Shown here: positions 2,349 to 52,974 of the stretch, piece after piece
How positions within the stretch are numbered: the stretch's first letter is position 1
Layout: each line of letters begins with the position of its first letter
NCBI GenBank assembly: GCA_030622635.1
Contig: JAUXFX010000001.1
Coordinates: 306-64,305, forward strand
Source of the DNA: Bacteroidota bacterium
Lineage (GTDB): Bacteria > Bacteroidota > Bacteroidia > Bacteroidales > JADFUO01
Direction of reading: 5' to 3'
DNA: 64,000 bases
Made by a program: the position numbers and the translations under genes
Notes under the pieces: generated by a model
What the model was told of the DNA's origin: nothing
Database searches by the model: none
What the model saw: only the letters and a program-made list of their open reading frames with translations

Positions 2349-3200
2349 TTAATCTTCTTCACTTTTCAACTTGTCGGGATTTTTAATAAACTTTTTATCT
2401 TCAGATTTTACTCTGCGTTCTAATTTCTTCACATCTTCTTCAGGTGGTAGTTCTTCAGGTTTTATTCCACGTTCAAGTAATAGCTTTCTCACACCTTTAT
2501 TGTTTCTGATGTGTTCCCACGAAATTTGCTGTCCTGATTTTATATCCTTATCATTTATGTTAAAAATAGTAATTTCCGTAGCAAAGTCTTTAGCTTTTAT
2601 AGTAATTGTGGGTAAAAAATCAGCGAGTGGACGATTTTGTTTTATATCAAGTTTTTTCTTCATCTTGCTTGTAGAATATCCAAATAACGCCTGATCGCCT
2701 TTACTGCGAATAATACCGAAATCCCCGTCATTTCCGGTTCGTTCATAAATTAATTCTGAAAGTTCTTTTTCTGATAATGAAAGTTTATGGCGAGCATTTA
2801 AACGCTCCCAGTCTTTTATGCGTTGTTCAATTATCTCGAATTTCCTTGTTTGGACAGCAAAATAGTTTTGTGCAAAAGCAATTTGTTCTTTTTTGGGGTC
2901 TCCGTTTTGAGCTATCAGATAACAAGCAAAACGAGTGAGCATAATATCGTTAATTTCGCGTTCGGTCCCTGAGCCGATTTTGACCATTTTGTTGATGTCA
3001 ACAAAATGGTCTAAAACTATATGAACTGTAGTTTCGCAAGATGTTTTGGCTTTGTTTATTATCTTTAAAAAGTTGCGCCATTCGGTATAGCCAAGTAAGT
3101 GTTGTAAATCTCTGGCTAACCAAAATTCTATACCATTCTCAGTTTGATTAGCATAAGATTCAAAATCTTCGGTAAGATGTTTTACAATTTCCTTTTTCAT
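2349..3200 (-). CDS. dinD: DNA-damage-inducible protein D (DinD family)
   Basis: 283-aa ORF. The N-terminal FESYANQTENGIEFWLARDLQHLLGYTEWRNFLKIINKAKTSC and overall length match the DinD family as I recall it. Confidence 0.8.
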   Translation of the reverse strand: MKKEIVKHLTEDFESYANQTENGIEFWLARDLQHLLGYTEWRNFLKIINKAKTSCETTVHIVLDHFVDINKMVKIGSGTEREINDIMLTRFACYLIAQNGDPKKEQIAFAQNYFAVQTRKFEIIEQRIKDWERLNARHKLSLSEKELSELIYERTGNDGDFGIIRSKGDQALFGYSTSKMKKKLDIKQNRPLADFLPTITIKAKDFATEITIFNINDKDIKSGQQISWEHIRNNKGVRKLLLERGIKPEELPPEEDVKKLERRVKSEDKKFIKNPDKLKSEED

Positions 3201-36074: not shown

Positions 36075-36318
36075 AACTTAATAAGATTTTAAGTGTTAAA
36101 AAATGGCTGCAAAAGTAATTAGTTTTATAATATTAAAAAGAAAAAATAAAATATTTTCAACACTATTACGTTTTTGCAACAAATTGATTTTGGTGGGTTT
36201 AAACTAAATATTTGAAAAATAATTCTAATAAAACAAGTTTTATTTTTAAACTTTTGTCTTAAAGAAAAATATTTTTACTATTTTAGCCCTTCTTATAAAC
36301 ATATTGTATATCTATTTA

Positions 36319-37269
36319 ATGAATTTTAAAAAACACATAATCGTAATAATATTTTCATTGTTTATTGGCAATATGAGCATTGCACAACAAATGCCTCAAT
36401 TTACTCAGAATATGTTTACTAATATGGCTGTAAACCCGGGTTATGCAGGAATAAGTGGAGCAATGTGTGTATCCGGATTAGTAAGACAACAATGGGTCGG
36501 TTTTAAAGATAGCGAAGGTAACAAAGTTGCCCCCGAAACATTTCTGATTACATTCGATACACCTGTCAGAATGATACATGGAGGAATCGGAGTATCGGTT
36601 ATTCAGGATAAAATAGGTTTTCAAAAAAATGTGGGATTAAATGTAGGATATTCATATCATCGCGACTTGGGCAGGGGTGTATTGGGGATTGGTGCTCAAA
36701 TCATTTTTTTGAACAAATCAGTTGATGCTTCTAAATACATTGCAATTGACGAGGTAGATCCCGTAATTGATAACCTGAAAAGTAACGGAAGCACTATGCT
36801 TATTGATTTTGCATTTGGCTTGTTTTATAAAGTCCCTGATGCATACTATATTGGTATATCATCATATAACTTAGCTCAGTCAAAATGGAAGTTTGAAAAT
36901 GATTTTAATTACACTTTAAAAAGAACTTTTTATTTCACTGCAGGTTATGAATTTACTTTACCAAATAATCCTTCTTTCCAAATTGACCCATCAATTTTTA
37001 TAAAAACCGACGGTTCATCAACCCAATACGATATAAATGCTCTTGTAAAATACAATAATAAGTTTTGGGGAGGCGTTACATACAGAGTACAGGATGCCGT
37101 GGCGGTAATACTTGGAATGAAATACAAAAACTTCCGCATAGGTTATGCTTATGATATTCCACTTTCATCAATCGGAATGAATGGCAGCCATGAAGTTTTA
37201 TTGGGTTATTGCTTTAAAATTGAAGTAGAAAGAGCGAGGAAAAGATATAAAAATACAAGATTTTTATAA
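36319..37269 (+). CDS. porP: PorP/SprF-family type IX secretion membrane protein
   Basis: QQMPQFTQNMFTNMAVNPGYAG is the family N-terminal signature. I prefer ATG 36319 to the TTG at 36304. Confidence 0.85.
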   Translation: MNFKKHIIVIIFSLFIGNMSIAQQMPQFTQNMFTNMAVNPGYAGISGAMCVSGLVRQQWVGFKDSEGNKVAPETFLITFDTPVRMIHGGIGVSVIQDKIGFQKNVGLNVGYSYHRDLGRGVLGIGAQIIFLNKSVDASKYIAIDEVDPVIDNLKSNGSTMLIDFAFGLFYKVPDAYYIGISSYNLAQSKWKFENDFNYTLKRTFYFTAGYEFTLPNNPSFQIDPSIFIKTDGSSTQYDINALVKYNNKFWGGVTYRVQDAVAVILGMKYKNFRIGYAYDIPLSSIGMNGSHEVLLGYCFKIEVERARKRYKNTRFL

Positions 37270-37375
37270 TTAATTCGTTTATTAATTTTTTTTATTCAGT
37301 TTTTTTTTAATTTTGAACCCCCAAAATAATAAATATTTGTAATTCCCGTTAGTTTGACAATTAAATATTAAAAAC

Positions 37376-38746
37376 ATGAAAAAACTATTCATTTACTTAG
37401 CAATAATAATCTTTCTGGGCAGTTGCAGTAATTCAGGAAATGGAGAACTTGTTGGAGTGAACAGAAAATCAAAACCATTTTATCAACCTGATCCATATGG
37501 TATGATGTTTATCCCTCAGGGAAGCTATACAATGGGTGTTAGTGATCAGGATATTTCTTATTCACAACTTCATGAGCCGAAAACAATTTCAGTGTCAGCA
37601 TTTTTTATAGATGAGACTGAAATTACAAATAATGAATACAGGCAATTTGTTTATTGGGTAAGAGATTCTATTGCCCGAACTCTTCTTGGCGAACTCAATC
37701 CCGAAGATTATTTAATTGAAGAGAATAAAAAAACAGGTGAATTATACGACCCCCCATATCTAAACTGGGACGAAGATATTGACTGGCAAAGTGATGAACA
37801 GGATGTTAGAGATGTTCTTGAAGATATGTATTTACCTGAACATGAAAGATATTTCAGAAGAAAAGAAATTGATACCAGAAAATTGAATTACGAATATTAC
37901 TGGGTTGACTTACACGCTGCTGCTGTCAAAGATTTTACACAGGAAGCAAATTTTGAGAATGCAAGTTTAGCAAACCGCCCTCAAGGTTTAAGAGACAGGT
38001 CGGTTTATGTTAGAAAAGAAGTAATAAATGTTTATCCGGATACATTATCTTGGATACATGATTATACTTACTCATTTAACGATCCGATGACAGAAAAATA
38101 TTTCTGGCATCCTGCTTATGATAATTATCCTGTAGTAGGCATTAACTGGAGGCAGGCAAAAGCATTCTGTGTTTGGAGAACAGAAATGTTAAACAGTTAT
38201 CTGAGAGGGAAAAAGGGAGGAACCAGTTTAGCCGAATTTCGATTGCCTACCGAAGCTGAATGGGAATGGGCAGCACGCGGAGGTTATGGTTTAAGTCCGT
38301 TTCCATGGGGAGGCCCTTATACAAGGAACGAAAAAGGCTGCTTCTTGGCAAATTTCAAACCACTTAAAGGTAATTATATTGATGATGGTGGCTTGCGTAC
38401 TGTAATCGTTGCCCATTATCCTTCAAACGATTGGGGTATTTATGACATGGCTGGCAACGTGGCAGAATGGACAAACAGCGCTTATGATCCTTCATCATAT
38501 AATTTTACATGGGATATGAATCCTAATTATACTTACAATGCAAAAGAATCCGATCCGCCTGCAATGAAGAGAAAAGTCATAAGAGGAGGATCATGGAAAG
38601 ATATTGCATATTATTTACAAGTTACAACCAGGGCTTATGAATATCAGGATACAGCAAAATGCTATATCGGTTTCAGGTGTATCCAGCCTTATCTTGGAAG
38701 AAACAAGGATGATAATCCTGCACGTGCTTCAAAAGTTTATAATTAA
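37376..38746 (+). CDS. gldK: Gliding motility/T9SS lipoprotein GldK (PorK), SUMF1/FGE fold
   Basis: 456 aa. It has the lipobox LGSCS, VIRGGSWKD, and sits first in a K-L-M-N order. Confidence 0.9.
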   Translation: MKKLFIYLAIIIFLGSCSNSGNGELVGVNRKSKPFYQPDPYGMMFIPQGSYTMGVSDQDISYSQLHEPKTISVSAFFIDETEITNNEYRQFVYWVRDSIARTLLGELNPEDYLIEENKKTGELYDPPYLNWDEDIDWQSDEQDVRDVLEDMYLPEHERYFRRKEIDTRKLNYEYYWVDLHAAAVKDFTQEANFENASLANRPQGLRDRSVYVRKEVINVYPDTLSWIHDYTYSFNDPMTEKYFWHPAYDNYPVVGINWRQAKAFCVWRTEMLNSYLRGKKGGTSLAEFRLPTEAEWEWAARGGYGLSPFPWGGPYTRNEKGCFLANFKPLKGNYIDDGGLRTVIVAHYPSNDWGIYDMAGNVAEWTNSAYDPSSYNFTWDMNPNYTYNAKESDPPAMKRKVIRGGSWKDIAYYLQVTTRAYEYQDTAKCYIGFRCIQPYLGRNKDDNPARASKVYN

Positions 38747-38802
38747 AAATTTAATAGTATATTTCAAATTAAAAATTATTATTTACCTAACTATTTAATA
38801 TT

Positions 38803-39828
38803 ATGGGTTTAAACAATTTAGTAAGAAGTAGAGGATTTAGAAATTTTATGGCTAAACTCTATGGCTGGGGTGCGGCAGTCGTAATTTTAGGTGCACTCTT
38901 TAAAATTAATCACTATCCATATGCAGATTATATGTTGATTGTAGGTTTAGGTACAGAATCGTTAATATTCTTTTTCTCTGCATTCGAACCACCACATGTT
39001 GAACCGGACTGGAGTTTGGTTTATCCGGAATTAGCAGGTATGTATCATGGAATGGATCTTGCTGAACAAAAGAGAATTGGAGTTACCGAAAAATTAGACG
39101 ACCTGCTTGCAGAAGCTAAAATCGGACCGGAGTTGATTGAGAGCCTTGGCATGGGATTACGAAATTTGAGTGATCAAACATCAAAATTAAAAGATGTATC
39201 AAATGCAACTATTGCCACAAACGAATTTGTTGAAAATGTAAAAAATGCTTCTTCTTCAGCCGGTGAACTTTCTCAGGCATACAAAAAAACTTCCGAATCG
39301 CTTAATCAGGATTCAGGTGCTTCAATAGAATACATTAATAATATTAAACAAGCATCAATCGGTGCTGCTAATCTTTCAAATGCATATTCACAAGCATCAG
39401 AATCAATCAAAAACGATTTATCTGTTACACATGAATTTGCAGGAAGTATTAAAGCAGCTACACAATCAGCAAATAATTTAGTTGAAAATTATACTAAATC
39501 AGCAGAAATTCTTTCAAAATCAGTTGAAATTCTTGATTTTTCAGCTGCAGAAGGTTCTTCTTATAATGAACAATTAAAAAGAATATCAGATAATCTGTCT
39601 GCTTTGAATGCTGTATATGAATTGCAATTACAAGGCACAAACCAGCAAGTTGAATCATCTGCCAAACTTCAGCAAACTATGAACCAGTTTCTTGAAAATA
39701 TTAATGAATCTGCTGATAAAATGGGAATCTACAAAGAACAAATTGATGTATTAACAGAAAAAGTAGCTGCCCTTAATAAAGTATATGGGAATATGCTGTC
39801 GGCTATGAGTTTTAATCCAAACAGTTAA
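38803..39828 (+). CDS. gldL: GldL (PorL)
   Basis: 341 aa. There are two N-terminal TM helices (YGWGAAVVILGALFKINHYPYADYMLIVGLGTESLIFFFSAFEPP) followed by a long coiled region. Confidence 0.9.
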   Translation: MGLNNLVRSRGFRNFMAKLYGWGAAVVILGALFKINHYPYADYMLIVGLGTESLIFFFSAFEPPHVEPDWSLVYPELAGMYHGMDLAEQKRIGVTEKLDDLLAEAKIGPELIESLGMGLRNLSDQTSKLKDVSNATIATNEFVENVKNASSSAGELSQAYKKTSESLNQDSGASIEYINNIKQASIGAANLSNAYSQASESIKNDLSVTHEFAGSIKAATQSANNLVENYTKSAEILSKSVEILDFSAAEGSSYNEQLKRISDNLSALNAVYELQLQGTNQQVESSAKLQQTMNQFLENINESADKMGIYKEQIDVLTEKVAALNKVYGNMLSAMSFNPNS

Positions 39829-39887
39829 AACTGAATAAAATCAGTAATATAGAAAAAATATTTATTTAAAAATTACAATAATTATTT

Positions 39888-41498
39888 ATGGCTGGATATA
39901 AGGAAACCCCGCGACAGAAAATGATTGCGATGATGTACCTGGTGTTGACAGCACTTTTGGCACTTAACGTTTCAAAAGAGATGTTAGATGCATTTATTGT
40001 GGTTAACAAAAGTGTTGAAAATACTAAAGCAAATTTTGCCAGTAAAATTGATGACACTTACAATAGATTTGAACAACAACTAAAAATTAATCCTAACAAA
40101 GTAGGTCCATACTGGGAAAAAGCACAAAAAGCAAAACAGTTATCTGAACGAATTGTCAGATATATTGATAGTGTAAAATATGCTGTTATTATACGTACAG
40201 ATGGTTTGATAGAAACAGTTGAACAGGCAAAAAATATTCCATTAGGGCAGGTTCATGCCAAAGATATGTTTACCGAACCAACACGATATTTCTTTGGCCG
40301 TTCGGAAGACGGAACTACCGGCGAAGCAGGAAAACTAAAAAGAAAAATAAATAATTACAGAGATCAAATGCTTGAGATAGCTGGTGAACCTCTTGATAGT
40401 GACCGTTTAGGATTAATCACAAAAGGACCATACTATAATGCAGACGGAAAACCCCTTACATGGGAACAATATAACTTTTATTATACAATTTTAGCTGCCG
40501 ATGTAACTATATTAAATAAATTTATTTCAGAAGTTCAAAGTGCTGAATTTGATGTTGTTAGCCTTCTATATTCTTCTGTAACCGCCGAAGATTTTAAGTT
40601 TGATGAAATTAATGCTAAAGTTGTTCCGAAAACTTCTTACATATTGAAAGGTCAAACCTATGAAGCTGAAGTATTTGTTGCTGCCTATGACACAAAACAA
40701 GACCCTGAAGTTTTTGTATTAAAGGGAGTTGACACCATCACAAGCGGAAATATTAAAAGGGCTGTGCCGGTTGAAGGAAAAAAAGGAGTTGTAAAACTAT
40801 CTTTCACCGGAAATACCGAAGGACCTCAAAAATATGCGGGTATAATTAAAATCTTAAACCCTGAAGGTGAAGCATTGAATTTTCATTTTAAAGGTGACTA
40901 TATTGTGGGTCCGCCTTCGCTTACTGTAGCAGCTACCAAAATGAATGTATTTTACATTGGAGTTGATAATCCGGTATCAATTTCAGTTCCAGGTGTGGCT
41001 GCTGAAAATCTTTATCCAGACATAACTTCCGGTGCTAGTTTAACACGTGACCCTGAAGGTAAAGACTGGATAGTAAGAGTACCAAAAGGTATGAAAAGAG
41101 CAGTAGTAACTGCTGATGCAAATTTTGAAGGCAAAAGAATAAATATGGGATCAAGCGAATTCCGTGTAAAAAGAGTCCCTGCTCCTATTGCAGAAATTGC
41201 AGGTCAAAAAGAAGGTGCAATTAATAAAAATACTTTATTAGCTGCTAATGCAATTATACCTTCAATGAAGGATTTTGAATTTGATCTGTATTTTGAAGTT
41301 AAATCTTTTACTATGGCTACTATTATCAGTGGAGACTGGATACCTAAAACTACAAGAGGTAACACGTTTTCAGAAGAAATGATAAATATTATCAGAGATG
41401 CAAAACGAAAACAAAAATTCTTTTTTGAAAACATACAGGCAGTTGGACCTGACGGCACAACCCGTACTTTAAATGTAATAAATCTTATAATTGATTAG
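39888..41498 (+). CDS. gldM: GldM (PorM)
   Basis: 536 aa. The N-terminus is MAGYKETPRQKMIAMMYLVLTALLALNVSKE. Confidence 0.9.
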   Translation: MAGYKETPRQKMIAMMYLVLTALLALNVSKEMLDAFIVVNKSVENTKANFASKIDDTYNRFEQQLKINPNKVGPYWEKAQKAKQLSERIVRYIDSVKYAVIIRTDGLIETVEQAKNIPLGQVHAKDMFTEPTRYFFGRSEDGTTGEAGKLKRKINNYRDQMLEIAGEPLDSDRLGLITKGPYYNADGKPLTWEQYNFYYTILAADVTILNKFISEVQSAEFDVVSLLYSSVTAEDFKFDEINAKVVPKTSYILKGQTYEAEVFVAAYDTKQDPEVFVLKGVDTITSGNIKRAVPVEGKKGVVKLSFTGNTEGPQKYAGIIKILNPEGEALNFHFKGDYIVGPPSLTVAATKMNVFYIGVDNPVSISVPGVAAENLYPDITSGASLTRDPEGKDWIVRVPKGMKRAVVTADANFEGKRINMGSSEFRVKRVPAPIAEIAGQKEGAINKNTLLAANAIIPSMKDFEFDLYFEVKSFTMATIISGDWIPKTTRGNTFSEEMINIIRDAKRKQKFFFENIQAVGPDGTTRTLNVINLIID

Positions 41499-41528
41499 AA
41501 ATTTAAAATAAATATAATTTTTCCTAAC

Positions 41529-41534
41529 AGGAGG
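41529..41534 (+). promoter_or_regulatory. Canonical Shine-Dalgarno AGGAGG 4 nt before the gldN ATG
   Basis: The sequence is caggaggtattATG. Most other genes in the window have A/T-only leaders. Confidence 0.5.
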
Positions 41535-41538
41535 TATT

Positions 41539-42387
41539 ATGAAAAAACTACTCATCTCGTTATTCACTCTAAGCTTGATAATAGCGATAAATATTAATTC
41601 ACAATCACAAATACTTGATAGCCCGCCACAGGATGGACTTTTTCCCGACATAGGAATGATTGATAAGAAACCTGTTCCATATCCGCCATTGAGAAAGGCA
41701 GATATTATGTGGTCTAAAAGAATATGGCGCGTTATTGATATGCGCGAAAAAATAAATCAACCGTTTTATTACCCGTTAGAACCGCATAACGGATGGAGAA
41801 GCTTTATGCAAATTATTATGGATGCCTTAAAAGAAGGGTCAATTACAGCTTATGATATTTCCGGTACTGACGAATTTTTAGTGCCACTAACTTATCAGGC
41901 AGTTATAACAAGACAGATTGACACTTTCCATACAATACTAAATCGATCATATCCTCCTTATGATGAGTATGATACTGTTATTTTTTCGGAATTTGATCCA
42001 TCCAAAGTTATGCGTATTAGGATTAAAGAAGACTGGTATTTTGACAAACAACGTTCACAATTACTTGTAAGAATACTTGGGATTTGTCCTATTATGATGA
42101 AAGACCGGGAAGGTGTTGAAATTCCCGAACCTTTATTCTGGATTCACTTTCCTGAAGCAAGACCAATACTGGCTAAAGCAGAAATGTTTAACAGGTTTAA
42201 TAGCGCCGAAAGAAGAACTTATGATGAAATATTCTGGAAAAGAATGTTCGGAAGTTATGTTTATAAAGAACAAAATGTTTATGACAGAAAAATCTCGCAA
42301 TATGCAACCGGTATGGATGCTTTGCTTGAAGCTGAAAGAATCAAAAATGAATTATTTGAATTTGAACATGATCTTTGGGAATTTTAA
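41539..42387 (+). CDS. gldN: GldN (PorN)
   Basis: 282 aa with a signal peptide. It is the last gene of the gldKLMN operon. Confidence 0.88.
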   Translation: MKKLLISLFTLSLIIAININSQSQILDSPPQDGLFPDIGMIDKKPVPYPPLRKADIMWSKRIWRVIDMREKINQPFYYPLEPHNGWRSFMQIIMDALKEGSITAYDISGTDEFLVPLTYQAVITRQIDTFHTILNRSYPPYDEYDTVIFSEFDPSKVMRIRIKEDWYFDKQRSQLLVRILGICPIMMKDREGVEIPEPLFWIHFPEARPILAKAEMFNRFNSAERRTYDEIFWKRMFGSYVYKEQNVYDRKISQYATGMDALLEAERIKNELFEFEHDLWEF

Positions 42388-49163: not shown

Positions 49164-50396
49164 ATGGATATACAGTCAATAAAACAACGATTTGGAATAA
49201 TTGGCAATTCACCTTTGCTTAACAGGGCAATTGATATTGCACGGCAGGTTGCCCCCACTGATATAACTGTTTTGATAACCGGTGAAAGCGGAACAGGAAA
49301 AGAAGTTTTTCCGAAAATAATTCATCAGTTAAGTGCAAGAAAGCACGGACCATACATAGCAGTTAATTGTGGAGCAATTCCCGAAGGCACTATTGATTCA
49401 GAATTATTCGGGCATGAGAAAGGTTCATTTACCGGCGCTCACGAGGCTCGCAAAGGATATTTTGAAGTTGTTAACGGCGGTACTATTTTCTTAGATGAAA
49501 TTGCCGAACTTCCTTTATCAACACAGGTTAGATTGCTGCGAGTCCTTGAAACAGGTGAATTTCTTAAAGTAGGATCATCAAAAGTAATTAAAGTAGATGT
49601 AAGAGTAGTTGCCGCTTCAAATGTTGATGTACCAGAAGCAATCAGAGAAGGGAAATTCAGGCAGGACTTGTTTTATCGTTTAAATACCGTACCTATTTAT
49701 GTTCCTCCTTTAAGAGAAAGAAAAGATGATATAATCTTACTTTTCAGGAAATTTGCTTCTGATTTTGCTGAAAAATATCGTATGCCTTCATTGCAGTTAG
49801 ACGAAGATGCAAAAAAAGTTCTTATTAATTATCGCTGGCAGGGAAATATCAGAGAATTGAAAAATATTACAGAACAAATTTCAATTATTGAACAAAACAG
49901 GACAATAACTGCCGATATACTCTGGAAATATTTACCCTTAAGCCATACAAATAAATTACCCGTACTTTATAAAAAAGAAAGTGCTAAAAGCGAATTTTCT
50001 GAAAGAGACCTGCTTTATAAGGTACTTTTTGATATGAAAAGAGATATAAACGACTTGAAAAAAATTGTTGTTGAAATTCTGCAAAGCGACGGAGATGATA
50101 AAGCTATTCATGAAAACAAACACCATCTGATCAAACAATTATATCAGGATATTGACTCGACTGACAAGGAAGACAGCGAAAATATTGAAATTCAACAAAA
50201 TATTGAAGAAACAATAAATGAGCCAATCCAACATTCGGAAGTTCTTGAAGAATCGCTTTCTCTTCAAAAAAAAGAAATTGATATGATAAAAAAGGCACTT
50301 GAAAAATATAATGGAAAACGCAAAATTGCTGCAAAAGAATTAGGCATATCCGAAAGAACACTCTATAGAAAAATTAAAGAATATAATATAAAATAA
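49164..50396 (+). CDS. Sigma-54-dependent transcriptional activator (bEBP) lacking an N-terminal sensory domain
   Basis: 410 aa. The AAA+ domain starts near residue 10 ([14 protein letters not shown] sigma-54 contact loop, RVVAASN). The C-terminus has a Fis-type [22 protein letters not shown]. Confidence 0.85.
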
Positions 50397-51200: not shown

Positions 51201-51935
51201 ATGAACCGTCAGCAATTTGTAAATTTTATTAAATCTCCTAATGAAATTAATGCCCAAAGCGTTAATTTGTTTGAGCAGGTGACAAAAGATTTTCCCTATT
51301 GCCAGTCTGCCGAAATTCTTTATGTTTTAAATTTATTTAAAGAAAAAAGTATAAAATATGATAATCAACTAAAAATTGCAGCTGCATACGCTTCAAATCG
51401 TAAAATCCTTAAAAAACTGATTGATAATATTAATTTTACTGAAGAAAAAATTGAGCTGCCAGACGAATATACTCCCGAAACAACTAAACAGGAAAAAGAA
51501 AAAGAAGGACAGAAATTAAGTAAAACGGATGAATTAAAAAAAATAATTGAGGAACGACTTAAAGAAATCAAAGACGAAAAACAAAAAAACAAAACAAAAT
51601 CAGACCAGATACATTATACCGTTGAAACTATTTTAAACAAAAAAACAAGCGTTTCTGATAAAAATTTAAAATCAAAAAGCGAGTTAATTGACAAATTCAT
51701 TAAGGACGAACCCGGCATCACGCGTATGAAAACCGGTTTTTACAATCCTGTTGATTCAGCCCGCCAAAGTATAGTTGATGAGGAAAATATTGTTAGCGAG
51801 ACTCTTGCAAAAATTTATTATGACCAGGGGATTTATTACAAGGCAATAAAAATTTATGAAAAATTAAGTTTGAAATTTCCGGAAAAAAGTAGTACATTTG
51901 CAGCCCGAATTAAAAAAATTCAGGAACTCAAATAA
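51201..51935 (+). CDS. Hypothetical protein with C-terminal TPR-like motif
   Basis: 244 aa with a lysine/glutamate-rich centre. The C-terminus is LAKIYYDQGIYYKAIKIYEKLSLKFPEKS. Confidence 0.45.
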   Translation: MNRQQFVNFIKSPNEINAQSVNLFEQVTKDFPYCQSAEILYVLNLFKEKSIKYDNQLKIAAAYASNRKILKKLIDNINFTEEKIELPDEYTPETTKQEKEKEGQKLSKTDELKKIIEERLKEIKDEKQKNKTKSDQIHYTVETILNKKTSVSDKNLKSKSELIDKFIKDEPGITRMKTGFYNPVDSARQSIVDEENIVSETLAKIYYDQGIYYKAIKIYEKLSLKFPEKSSTFAARIKKIQELK

Positions 51936-51979: not shown

Positions 51980-52312
51980 ATGGGCACATATATTTTAATT
52001 TCAGTTTTAATACTTATAACTTGTATTCTTTTGATTTTAGTTGTTTTGGTGCAAAATTCCAAAGGAGGCGGACTTGCTTCAAATTTTGCCGGGTCAAATC
52101 AATACATGGGTGTAAGAAAGACCGCTGATTTTCTTGAAAAAACAACATGGTCATTAGCAATTGCTTTACTGGTTCTTAGCTTGTTTTCAATATTTTTAAT
52201 TCCAAGAGACACTGACGTTCAGTCAACATTTGATACTGAACTGAGAGAGCAAATTGACAATTCGCAAACCCAGCCTATTGAGGATTATCAGGCACCTCCC
52301 CCACAGGAATAA
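51980..52312 (+). CDS. secG: Preprotein translocase subunit SecG
   Basis: 110 aa. It has two TM helices and the LLILVVLVQNSKGGGL motif. Confidence 0.8.
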   Translation: MGTYILISVLILITCILLILVVLVQNSKGGGLASNFAGSNQYMGVRKTADFLEKTTWSLAIALLVLSLFSIFLIPRDTDVQSTFDTELREQIDNSQTQPIEDYQAPPPQE

Positions 52313-52621
52313 ACAAAGATAATTAATAATCCTTGTTTGTAACTTTTTATTTGGTGATTTATTTCCTTATAAATATTTATATGAATAGCCAAGATTCTGA
52401 TCTGACATAAGTTAAATTTTGAATTTTTTGTTTTTCCACCTATCCCTAACCCTTTCCCCCACGGGAGAAAGGGGATAATTACTTCGAAATTCAGTGTTTT
52501 ATATTTGATAAGAATGTAAACTGAACGAAAAAGAGTTTGCAAATTTTTAAATTTCTTTTAAATCAAGTTAATAAAATGTCAGAATGTCATAAAACCCTGT
52601 CATTTTTCTAATTTTCCACTT

Positions 52622-52636
52622 TGGCACAAAATATGC
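52622..52636 (+). promoter_or_regulatory. Candidate sigma-54 (-24/-12) promoter upstream of groES
   Basis: TGGCAC-aaaat-ATGC has exact GG-N10-GC spacing and one mismatch to TGGCAC-N5-TTGC. It lies 60 nt upstream of ATG 52696. Confidence 0.4.
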
Positions 52637-52695
52637 CAGTGCGAAATTGTATTTTTAGGAAATTACATATTGTCTAACAAAAAAAATTATTTATT

Positions 52696-52974
52696 ATGGC
52701 AAAATTAAATATTAAACCATTAGCAGATCGGGTGATTATTGAGCCTGCTGCTGCTGAAGAAATAACTGCCGGTGGAATTATTATTCCTGATACTGCTAAA
52801 GAAAAACCCCTGAAAGGAAAAATTGTAGCAATCGGAACCGGTAAAAAAGATGAACCGCTAACTGTAAAAGTTGGTGATAACGTTTTATACGGAAAATATG
52901 CCGGTACTGAAATTACTATTGATGGCAATGATTATCTGATCATGCGTGAATCGGATGTTGTAGCTATTGTTTAA
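52696..52974 (+). CDS. groES: Co-chaperonin GroES
   Basis: 92 aa. It has [12 protein letters not shown]...[13 protein letters not shown]. Confidence 0.95.

Follow-up and report, generated by a model that had tools for sequence, protein, structure and literature searches.

How Bacteroidota switch on their chaperonin genes is the question raised by a groES-groEL locus in a 64,000-nt stretch of DNA from an uncultured Bacteroidales (assembly GCA_030622635.1, contig JAUXFX010000001.1, positions 306 to 64,305 of the forward strand). We refer to this whole stretch as the window and count positions from its first letter. To our knowledge, Bacteroidota have no sigma-32, and the way in which they sense heat shock has not been worked out. 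In the window, groES is preceded by a sigma-54-type -24/-12 element and by three TGTCA repeats, and a gene for an enhancer-binding protein (EBP) without a sensor domain lies 2.2 kb upstream. A first-pass annotation, made from the sequence alone, had proposed that the chaperonin genes, or the whole lptE-secG-groESL neighborhood, depend on RpoN. Our analysis leads us to consider it quite likely, taken as a whole, that groES-groEL has a sigma-54 promoter with an activator site built from TGNCA units and that the adjacent EBP is the best candidate for its activator.

Every coordinate given for the element by the first-pass annotation was correct. TGGCAC occupies 52622-52627 and ATGC 52633-52636, the spacing is exactly GG-N10-GC (GG at 52623-52624, GC at 52635-52636), and the groES start codon (ATG at 52696) lies 60 nt downstream of the GC. 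The window match by itself is not significant and proves nothing: TGGCAC-N5-WTGC occurred exactly once in the window against 0.11 expected, 10 of 100 shuffles contained at least one exact match, and three matches with one mismatch allowed compare with 4.55 expected, i.e., there was no enrichment. No further sigma-54 site of the groES type was found elsewhere in the 64-kb window. The significance of the site comes instead from its conservation in 58 groES loci and four loci with groEL only.

The relatives were 80 loci obtained from a genome scan with the window EBP, and their EBPs were 66-95% identical; most were labeled Bacteroidales, some Lentimicrobiaceae or Lentimicrobium and two Prolixibacteraceae, and the others carried only the label Bacteroidia or Bacteroidota. 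groES lay downstream of the EBP gene in 57 of them, nearly always in the order EBP-lptE-(244-aa protein)-secG-groES-groEL, and together with the window these loci provided 58 groES upstream regions. All 58 contained cTTTGGCAY-AAAWT-rTGACA at a distance of 52-94 nt from the ATG, with TGGCA and the T and G at +12 and +13 invariant, and the information content was 1-2.5 bits per position within the motif compared with about 0.1-0.4 in the flanks. Four more loci had the identical site type directly before groEL, which raised the total to 62 of 62. In these loci (L010, L018, L019, and L028), a hairpin and the sigma-54 promoter were followed directly by groEL, approximately 80 nt downstream; the groEL sequences were 70-76% identical, and tblastn detected no groES between promoter and groEL. 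Conservation upstream of groES in relatives, a check that the first-pass annotation had proposed, was thus confirmed. About 10% of shuffles hold an exact match per 64 kb, as would suit a chance match in AT-rich intergenic DNA; however, this explanation is already refuted by the 62 orthologous loci, in which the site is conserved while the flanking intergenic sequence is not, and we give it practically no credence.

The base at the canonical -12 C position was A in 43, T in 10, and C in 5 of the 58 loci, and the closest relative, L001 (95% identical), had ATGAC at -12. Judging from this alignment, the GC of the window is a local substitution, particular to the window and a few relatives. The A in the relatives is explained by the -12 box of mapped Bacteroidota promoters, which is TTGA or CTGA. 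Mapping of transcription start sites in Flavobacterium psychrophilum revealed a motif, SM4, that was assigned to sigma-54 and drives groES-groEL, lon, dnaK, grpE-dnaJ, and htpG, which form one co-expression cluster (B254), as well as clpB and skp (Guerin et al. 2021, PMC9723704). The SM4 sites at these chaperone promoters read TTGGCAY-N5-TTGA/CTGA (PMC9723704). The groS promoter (aaaTGTCAGttttaaatccTTGGCATAATTTCTGAAAAG), with a start site mapped at TTGGCATAATTTCTGA, 30 nt from the ATG, was assigned to sigma-54, and the lon (ATGGCACAATCCTTGACTTA), clpB (TTGGAATAACAATTGACGAT), and skp (TTGGCACGATAGTTGAATTT) promoters have the same TTGA-type -12 box (PMC9723704, Table S2). From these sequences, the -24/-12 element of Bacteroidota appears to have the form TTGGCAY-N5-(T/A/G)TG(A/C/T). 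Its -24 GG and the G of its -12 TG are fixed, but the position of the canonical C usually holds A.

The sigma-54 wiring of groESL, of which the first-pass annotation knew no description, has already been described for the phylum, and our locus is a further example in an uncultured Bacteroidales. F. psychrophilum shares with the window the phylum, a groESL operon driven from a TG-A type of -12 box, a TGTCA just upstream of the -24 box and, from the EBP gene onward, the gene order (miaB-EBP (418 aa)-lptE-0731-secG-groS-groL; PMC9723704). It differs in belonging to Flavobacteriia rather than Bacteroidia. A phylum-wide survey with position-specific scoring matrices predicts exactly this wiring, with sigma-54 promoters for GroEL, GroES, GrpE, DnaJ, and DnaK enriched in Flavobacteriia, Bacteroidia, and Cytophagia, and in Planctomycetota too (Carrera-Reyna et al. 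2025, PMC12316311). The survey is purely computational, and in the part available it describes no upstream TGNCA element and ties no EBP to chaperone genes; the F. psychrophilum study likewise names no enhancer and assigns no EBP (PMC9723704). In the literature as far as it could be searched, we found no EBP or upstream motif assigned to the chaperone regulon of Bacteroidota, and Francke 2011 and the Blattabacterium genome paper contained nothing relevant to this question.

No rival element was found at groES. As the first-pass annotation had stated, CIRCE (controlling inverted repeat of chaperone expression; TTAGCACTC-N9-GAGTGCTAA) was absent near groES in the window and in the relatives at up to five mismatches, and away from groES the relatives' loci contained only scattered chance matches with five mismatches. 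A sigma-A box (TAnnTTTG) upstream of groES was absent from the window and occurred in 5 of the 58 loci at scattered positions; an SM5 box (TAnnTTGY) was rejected as not conserved. A generic scan with sigma-70 and terminator consensus sequences was uninformative, as expected for Bacteroidota, and a k-mer search of the groES spacers for another common motif returned only the inverted repeat.

The window site is nearly palindromic (TGGCAC AAAAT ATGCCA), the search pattern matched on the minus strand too, and the site consists of TGNCA pentamers, as does the upstream element. It might be read not as a sigma-54 promoter but as the palindromic operator (TGGCA-N7-TGCCA) of a dimeric repressor, an analogue of CIRCE or of HAIR (HspR-associated inverted repeat). 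However, the palindrome is confined to the window and a few relatives, most of which have TGGCAY...TGACA, with the GG invariant in 58 of 58. The transcription start site of F. psychrophilum, moreover, lies approximately 14 nt past the orthologous motif, and dozens of promoters share this geometry (PMC9723704). An operator at this place would also leave groESL with no other promoter, and we consider it very unlikely. The conservation in 62 of 62 loci, the lack of a rival box, and the mapped start site of F. psychrophilum support the wiring of the chaperonin genes to RpoN, and 52620-52638 is very likely the sigma-54 promoter of groES-groEL (Table 1).

Table 1. Positions of the promoter, the candidate activator site, and the genes discussed in the text
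Feature	Position	Strand	Basis or remark
Predicted sigma-54-type -24/-12 promoter of groES-groEL, TTTGGCAC-AAAAT-ATGCCA	52620..52638	+	Conservation; SM4-like class (F. psychrophilum)
Predicted transcription start	52647..52650	+	Inferred from F. psychrophilum SM4 geometry
groES, 92 aa	52696..52974	+	Cpn10, E = 6e-32
groEL, 548 aa	53015..54661	+	Cpn60_TCP1, E = 9e-79
13-bp element TGTCAGAATGTCA (TGNCA-N3-TGNCA), candidate upstream activating sequence	52577..52589		45 nt before T of TGGCAC
Third TGNCA unit, offset 21 from first	52598..52602		Alignment; TGTCA here, TGACA in most relatives
Sensor-less EBP, 410 aa, leading candidate activator of groES promoter	49164..50396	+	Pfam domains, GSFTGA loop
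Conserved 244-aa protein between lptE and secG	51201..51935	+	No Pfam or NCBIfam hit

RNA polymerase with sigma-54 would read this promoter, and transcription should start near 52649, a position predicted from the same 14-nt spacing as in SM4 of F. psychrophilum, counted from G52635. In the groS and skp entries of SM4, the presumed mapped start site follows the G of the -12 TG at a distance of 14 nt, a count that assumes that the 61-nt entries of Table S2 span -50 to +10. The predicted 5' untranslated region (UTR) would be approximately 47 nt long, compared with 30 nt in F. psychrophilum. Its predicted fold (-1.3 kcal/mol) was no better than that of shuffles, and an RNA thermometer was rejected, there being no structure. 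At 52666-52690 of the window, and approximately 20-35 nt before the groES ATG in many relatives, the predicted 5' UTR contains a recurrent TGTTTAAC, TGTCTAAC, or TGTAAAAC followed by an A-rich run (GTTTAAC in 13 and TGTTTAAC in 10 of the 58 groES loci), which may be a translation-initiation or leader element.

For a wiring of the whole lptE-secG-groESL neighborhood to RpoN we obtained no support. The regions before the EBP gene, lptE, and secG yielded no sigma-54 site; the EBP gene is instead preceded by a sigma-A-like box (TAACTTTACA in the window and TAACTTTGCA, TAATTTTGCA, or TATCTTTACA in many relatives), and in the relatives a terminator hairpin stands between secG and groES. A search of approximately 1.8 Mb of loci revealed no sigma-54 sites beyond those of groES, groEL, and dnaK, so that the regulon could not be widened using flanking DNA.

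The three TGTCA direct repeats reported in the first-pass annotation lie at 52577-52581, 52585-52589, and 52598-52602 (offsets 0, 8, and 21) and are part of an upstream element that recurs widely at groES and dnaK. The first two form a 13-mer, TGNCA-N3-TGNCA, which was present upstream of groES in nearly all of the 58 loci. In the relatives, TGTCAGAATGTCA corresponds to the left arm and the start of the loop of a hairpin downstream of secG, and the third unit, TGACA in most of them, corresponds to its right arm (AAAATGTCAGAATGTCA-loop-CATTCTGACATTTTTT, with an A-tract and a U-tract and a fold of -13 to -21 kcal/mol). An alignment of 51 sequences showed five stem pairs changed on both sides and many G-U pairs valid only on the plus strand, and none of 500 shuffles reached the observed covariation values. 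The hairpin is usually located 22-35 nt past the secG stop codon, and its distance to the -24 box falls into classes from -36 to -190. In the relatives, this hairpin is very probably the secG terminator.

The strength of the relatives' hairpin, its covariation, and its position, which is tied to the secG stop codon and not to the -24 box, raise the possibility that the promoter is real but the TGTCA units of the window are mere remains of a decayed terminator with no regulatory role. An intrinsic terminator, i.e., a stable hairpin with a U-tract, was indeed recognizable at the TGTCA region in the relatives but not in the window, where the hairpin is weak (-8.3 kcal/mol) and its right arm is mutated. 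However, a terminator alone does not fit three observations. The TCA loop bases of the second unit are invariant although unpaired; the 13-mer is intact in the window, L001, L057, L071, and L072, all of which have lost the right arm or the U-tract; and in two separate lineages (the window with L001, and L071) the third unit is altered only at its central base and is still TGNCA. In addition, the 13-mer with its offsets recurs in helical phase at dnaK promoters that have no secG upstream, as described below. We therefore consider it unlikely that the units have no regulatory role. A replacement terminator for secG at 52311-52338 was rejected as weak (z = -1.4).

To examine dnaK, metagenomes were scanned for genes that start with MGKIIGID and have a sigma-54-type box at a distance of 35-65 nt upstream, which yielded at least 120 stretches; the statistics given here are for 93 non-redundant promoters among the matches listed. 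Nearly all of the at least 120 sites read TTGGCAY-N5-TTG(A/C/T), and the extra T, which was outside the search pattern, argues that they are genuine Bacteroidota-type promoters. In 74% of the 93 listed promoters, TGWCA occurred between -45 and -8 relative to the box (TGNCA in 88%), compared with 6.5% in shuffles and 13% in the region from -155 to -118. TGNCA pairs at offset 8 numbered 49 against 0.12 expected. The 13-mer was found in 48 of the 93 upstream regions against 0.08 expected, an enrichment of about 600-fold (maximum of 2 in 500 shuffles), and in none of 86 coding controls; a third TGNCA unit was common at +19 to +24. The starts of the 13-mer clustered at -36, -46, -57, -67, -79, and -89 from the T of TGGCA, and the phasing was significant at periods of 10.3-11 bp (Rayleigh p ~8e-4, with the main class collapsed to one value) but not at 8-9.5 or 13 bp. 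TGNCA-N3-TGNCA, which occurs at groES in nearly all of the 58 loci and at dnaK in about half of the 93 listed promoters, thus provides a new handle that marks sigma-54 chaperone promoters.

The dnaK stretches L128, L141, and L197 encode a different DnaK N-terminus (…TTNSVVAVMEGSDPKVLINS) and have a canonical TTGGCACG-N4-TTGC box; TGNCA units are absent from its vicinity. They resemble dnaK promoters of the sigma-54 type from another lineage that uses a different enhancer, and might correspond to the Planctomycetota enrichment of the survey (PMC12316311).

Related pentamers are present at the chaperone promoters of F. psychrophilum: in the Table S2 sequences, TGTCA (groS), TGCCA (lon), and TGTCC (clpB) lie 17-20 nt before TGGCA, and no TGNCA-like pentamer was found within the same 22-26 nt in the five non-chaperone SM4 entries examined. 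The published 61-nt groS sequence differs from the window in having one TGTCA unit and no 13-mer. In the window, the units at 52577 and 52585 make up a dyad-symmetric TGNCA-N3-TGNCA, and the third, at 52598, follows at a distance of one to two helical turns. A phased site with dyad symmetry that closely precedes a promoter dependent on an activator looks like an enhancer, and the units are most likely the binding site of an activator, unusually close to the promoter, with the center of the 13-mer at about -66 from the predicted start site. From these sequence patterns, we regard the TGNCA element as probably the enhancer of the groES promoter, although less firmly than we hold the promoter itself.

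The closed complex formed by sigma-54 RNA polymerase needs an AAA+ EBP to open, and the groES promoter must therefore be driven by such a protein. The best candidate is the EBP encoded upstream, on account of its synteny with groESL, the presence of the 13-mer before its gene in 17 of 80 loci, and the conservation of its recognition helix along with the motif. As the first-pass annotation had described, this protein begins with its AAA+ domain and has a GSFTGA loop and a Fis-type helix-turn-helix (HTH) but no sensor. Pfam places Sigma54_activat (PF00158) at residues 12-178 (E = 3e-68), AAA_lid_14 at 184-258, and HTH_8 at 371-407, and the open reading frame (ORF) opens at the first start codon after a stop; with the AAA+ domain starting at residue 12 of the longest possible frame, there is no room for an N-terminal sensor domain. 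The linker of approximately 110 aa contains a conserved helix at about residues 278-300. All 80 orthologs are 396-421 aa long with at most 38 in-frame codons upstream, and GSFTGA, the linker helix, and the HTH recognition helix are nearly invariant among them. The closest solved AAA+ domains are those of Aquifex NtrC1 and NtrC4, NifA, FleQ, ZraR, and PspF. The protein fell below every NCBIfam equivalog cut-off (PspF TIGR02974, 281 vs 443.55 bits; PRK11608, 232 vs 529), so that its description as PspF-like holds for the architecture, with no N-terminal regulatory domain, but not for orthology.

The motif TG[TAG]CA-N3-TG[TAG]CA was present upstream of the EBP gene in the 17 loci mentioned above, mostly 75-113 nt upstream, with two at -49 and -180; this corresponds to 26 strand-hits against about 0.26 expected (~100-fold), and in the remaining 0.93 Mb the frequency was near chance once orthologous groups were set aside. 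On contig L153, a 49%-identical sensor-less EBP ortholog with the same recognition helix adjoins lptE and secG, and the dnaK promoter of this contig carries the 13-mer (TGACATTTTGTCA).

In six of the relatives (L045, L046, L054, L058, L067, and L068), a conserved TG(T/C)CATTTTGTCAGCAATACTGCCAAAAA lies approximately 105 nt before the EBP ATG; read from the other strand it is TTTGGCAGTATTGCTGACA, which matches the groES-type sigma-54 box in full. A minus-strand promoter at this place was rejected, as no gene lies downstream and transcription would run antisense into pheT; the sequence is better read as a third TGNCA unit of a three-unit site. TGNCA pairs also occurred approximately 2.6 kb upstream of the EBP gene, four in the recG coding sequence and four at the pheT promoter. 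In the latter (L032, L050, L055, and L064, one sub-lineage), TGACA-N3-TGACA immediately precedes a sigma-A-like pheT box (CATGACAGTTTGACATTTTATCTGTAATTTTGCA), which means that TGNCA pairs are not exclusive to sigma-54 promoters.

Several points weigh against the explanation set out so far. Most relatives have A rather than C at the canonical -12 position, so that the assignment to sigma-54 leans on the Flavobacterium data and the invariant GG. The TGNCA units of most relatives lie within a covarying hairpin that fits a terminator, and a terminator role could explain part of their conservation. The candidate activating sequence is centered near -60, closer than classical enhancers, and the dnaK contigs are metagenomic and of presumptive taxonomy. 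No frame of the 64-kb window encodes an RpoN box; the presence of RpoN is suggested by the EBP with an intact GSFTGA, conserved in 80 relatives. The last two points concern the activator. In the window and most loci, the region before the EBP gene lacks the 13-mer, and F. psychrophilum encodes three EBPs (PF00158), none of them tied to the chaperone cluster, the assignment being left open by the authors (PMC9723704).

These last points would also suit a situation in which promoter and enhancer are as we describe but the activator is another EBP encoded elsewhere, the adjacent one serving, e.g., an envelope or lipopolysaccharide regulon near lptE. In F. psychrophilum, the EBP gene and lptE form their own transcription unit, which belongs to cluster B413 and not to B254 (PMC9723704), and lptE and secG, rather than groESL, could maintain the gene order. 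Against this, the synteny of the EBP gene with groESL spans two classes, the 13-mer is enriched before the EBP gene, and the HTH recognition helix is conserved along with the motif down to 49% identity. We regard another EBP as a substantial possibility, though less likely than not, and for the adjacent sensor-less EBP as the activator of the groES promoter we consider the chances evenly balanced. It nevertheless provides a second new handle, a named candidate activator of 410 aa that is syntenic with groESL in two classes.

As it has no sensor domain, the window EBP would have to depend for its activity on a partner protein or on titration of chaperones; that the window EBP senses stress through titration, or through a partner such as its 244-aa neighbor, is conjecture. 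The 244-aa protein has a K/E-rich middle and a C-terminus resembling tetratricopeptide repeats and occupies the same place in nearly all relatives and in L153; in F. psychrophilum this slot is filled by THC0290_0731. The protein may serve the sensor-less EBP as a partner or act in the envelope. We infer all four of the following: the dependence on sigma-54 in the window organism, the binding of an EBP at the TGNCA units, the identity of that EBP, and the sensing of stress. As a tentative and rather doubtful extension, the EBP could be the master heat-shock activator of Bacteroidota in place of sigma-32 and HrcA, acting from a phased TGNCA-N3-TGNCA enhancer located approximately 25-90 bp above the -24 box at the promoters of groESL, dnaK, and other chaperone genes, and being restrained by free chaperones or a partner such as the 244-aa protein and released by unfolded protein. 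If the enhancer element and the candidate activator are confirmed, it would become possible to draw the heat-shock circuit, comprising sensor, activator, enhancer, and promoter, of a phylum that is important both in the gut and in the environment, and its enhancer would be unusually promoter-proximal for sigma-54.

The proposed circuit resembles known systems in part. Like the EBP of the window, PspF of Escherichia coli is a sensor-less protein of an AAA+ domain and an HTH; it activates a sigma-54 stress promoter from an upstream dyad, and it depends for its control on a second protein, in this case PspA. The window EBP differs in not being an ortholog and in its linker of approximately 110 aa with a conserved helix. 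It also has no adjacent pspA-like gene: general Pfam annotation of its neighbors (lptE, the 244-aa protein, and secG) showed no PspA domain. Furthermore, the candidate target is a cytoplasmic chaperone regulon, and the candidate activating sequence is closer to the promoter than in the psp system. HrcA-CIRCE and sigma-32 control the same target genes, groESL and dnaK; however, no CIRCE is present here, and in place of a repressor or a factor of the sigma-70 family, the proposed scheme relies on positive control by sigma-54 together with an activator ATPase. The groESL3 operon of Bradyrhizobium japonicum reportedly has a -24/-12 promoter that depends on NifA and sigma-54. It is, however, one of several groESL copies and is co-regulated with nitrogen fixation, whereas groESL of the window appears to be the main chaperonin operon, in a regulon of the heat-shock type.

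Other features of the window were also recorded. Signatures of dnaK, clpB, and htpG were absent from the 64-kb window, and Pfam annotation of 30 further ORFs revealed no other heat-shock gene. The secG-groES spacer contains an insertion of approximately 126 nt relative to L001 (52426-52551), which holds a GC-rich palindrome, CCCTTTCCCCC/GGGAGAAAGGG (52450-52473), conspicuous in DNA of 33% GC and present as a single copy in the window; a GC-rich element upstream of the L013 EBP gene (GGGAGGGGGTTAGGGGGTGGG) resembles it. The insertion may be a small mobile element similar to repetitive extragenic palindromes or miniature inverted-repeat transposable elements. A type IX secretion and gliding cluster on the plus strand (36304-42387), consisting of porP/sprF, a gene for a GldK-like FGE-sulfatase protein, gldL, gldM, and gldN, is followed by recG and pheT. 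On the minus strand, 2349-3200 encodes a protein of 283 aa whose BRO-N domain represents a family that is frequent in phages and mobile elements; a GH92 glycosidase gene adjoins it.

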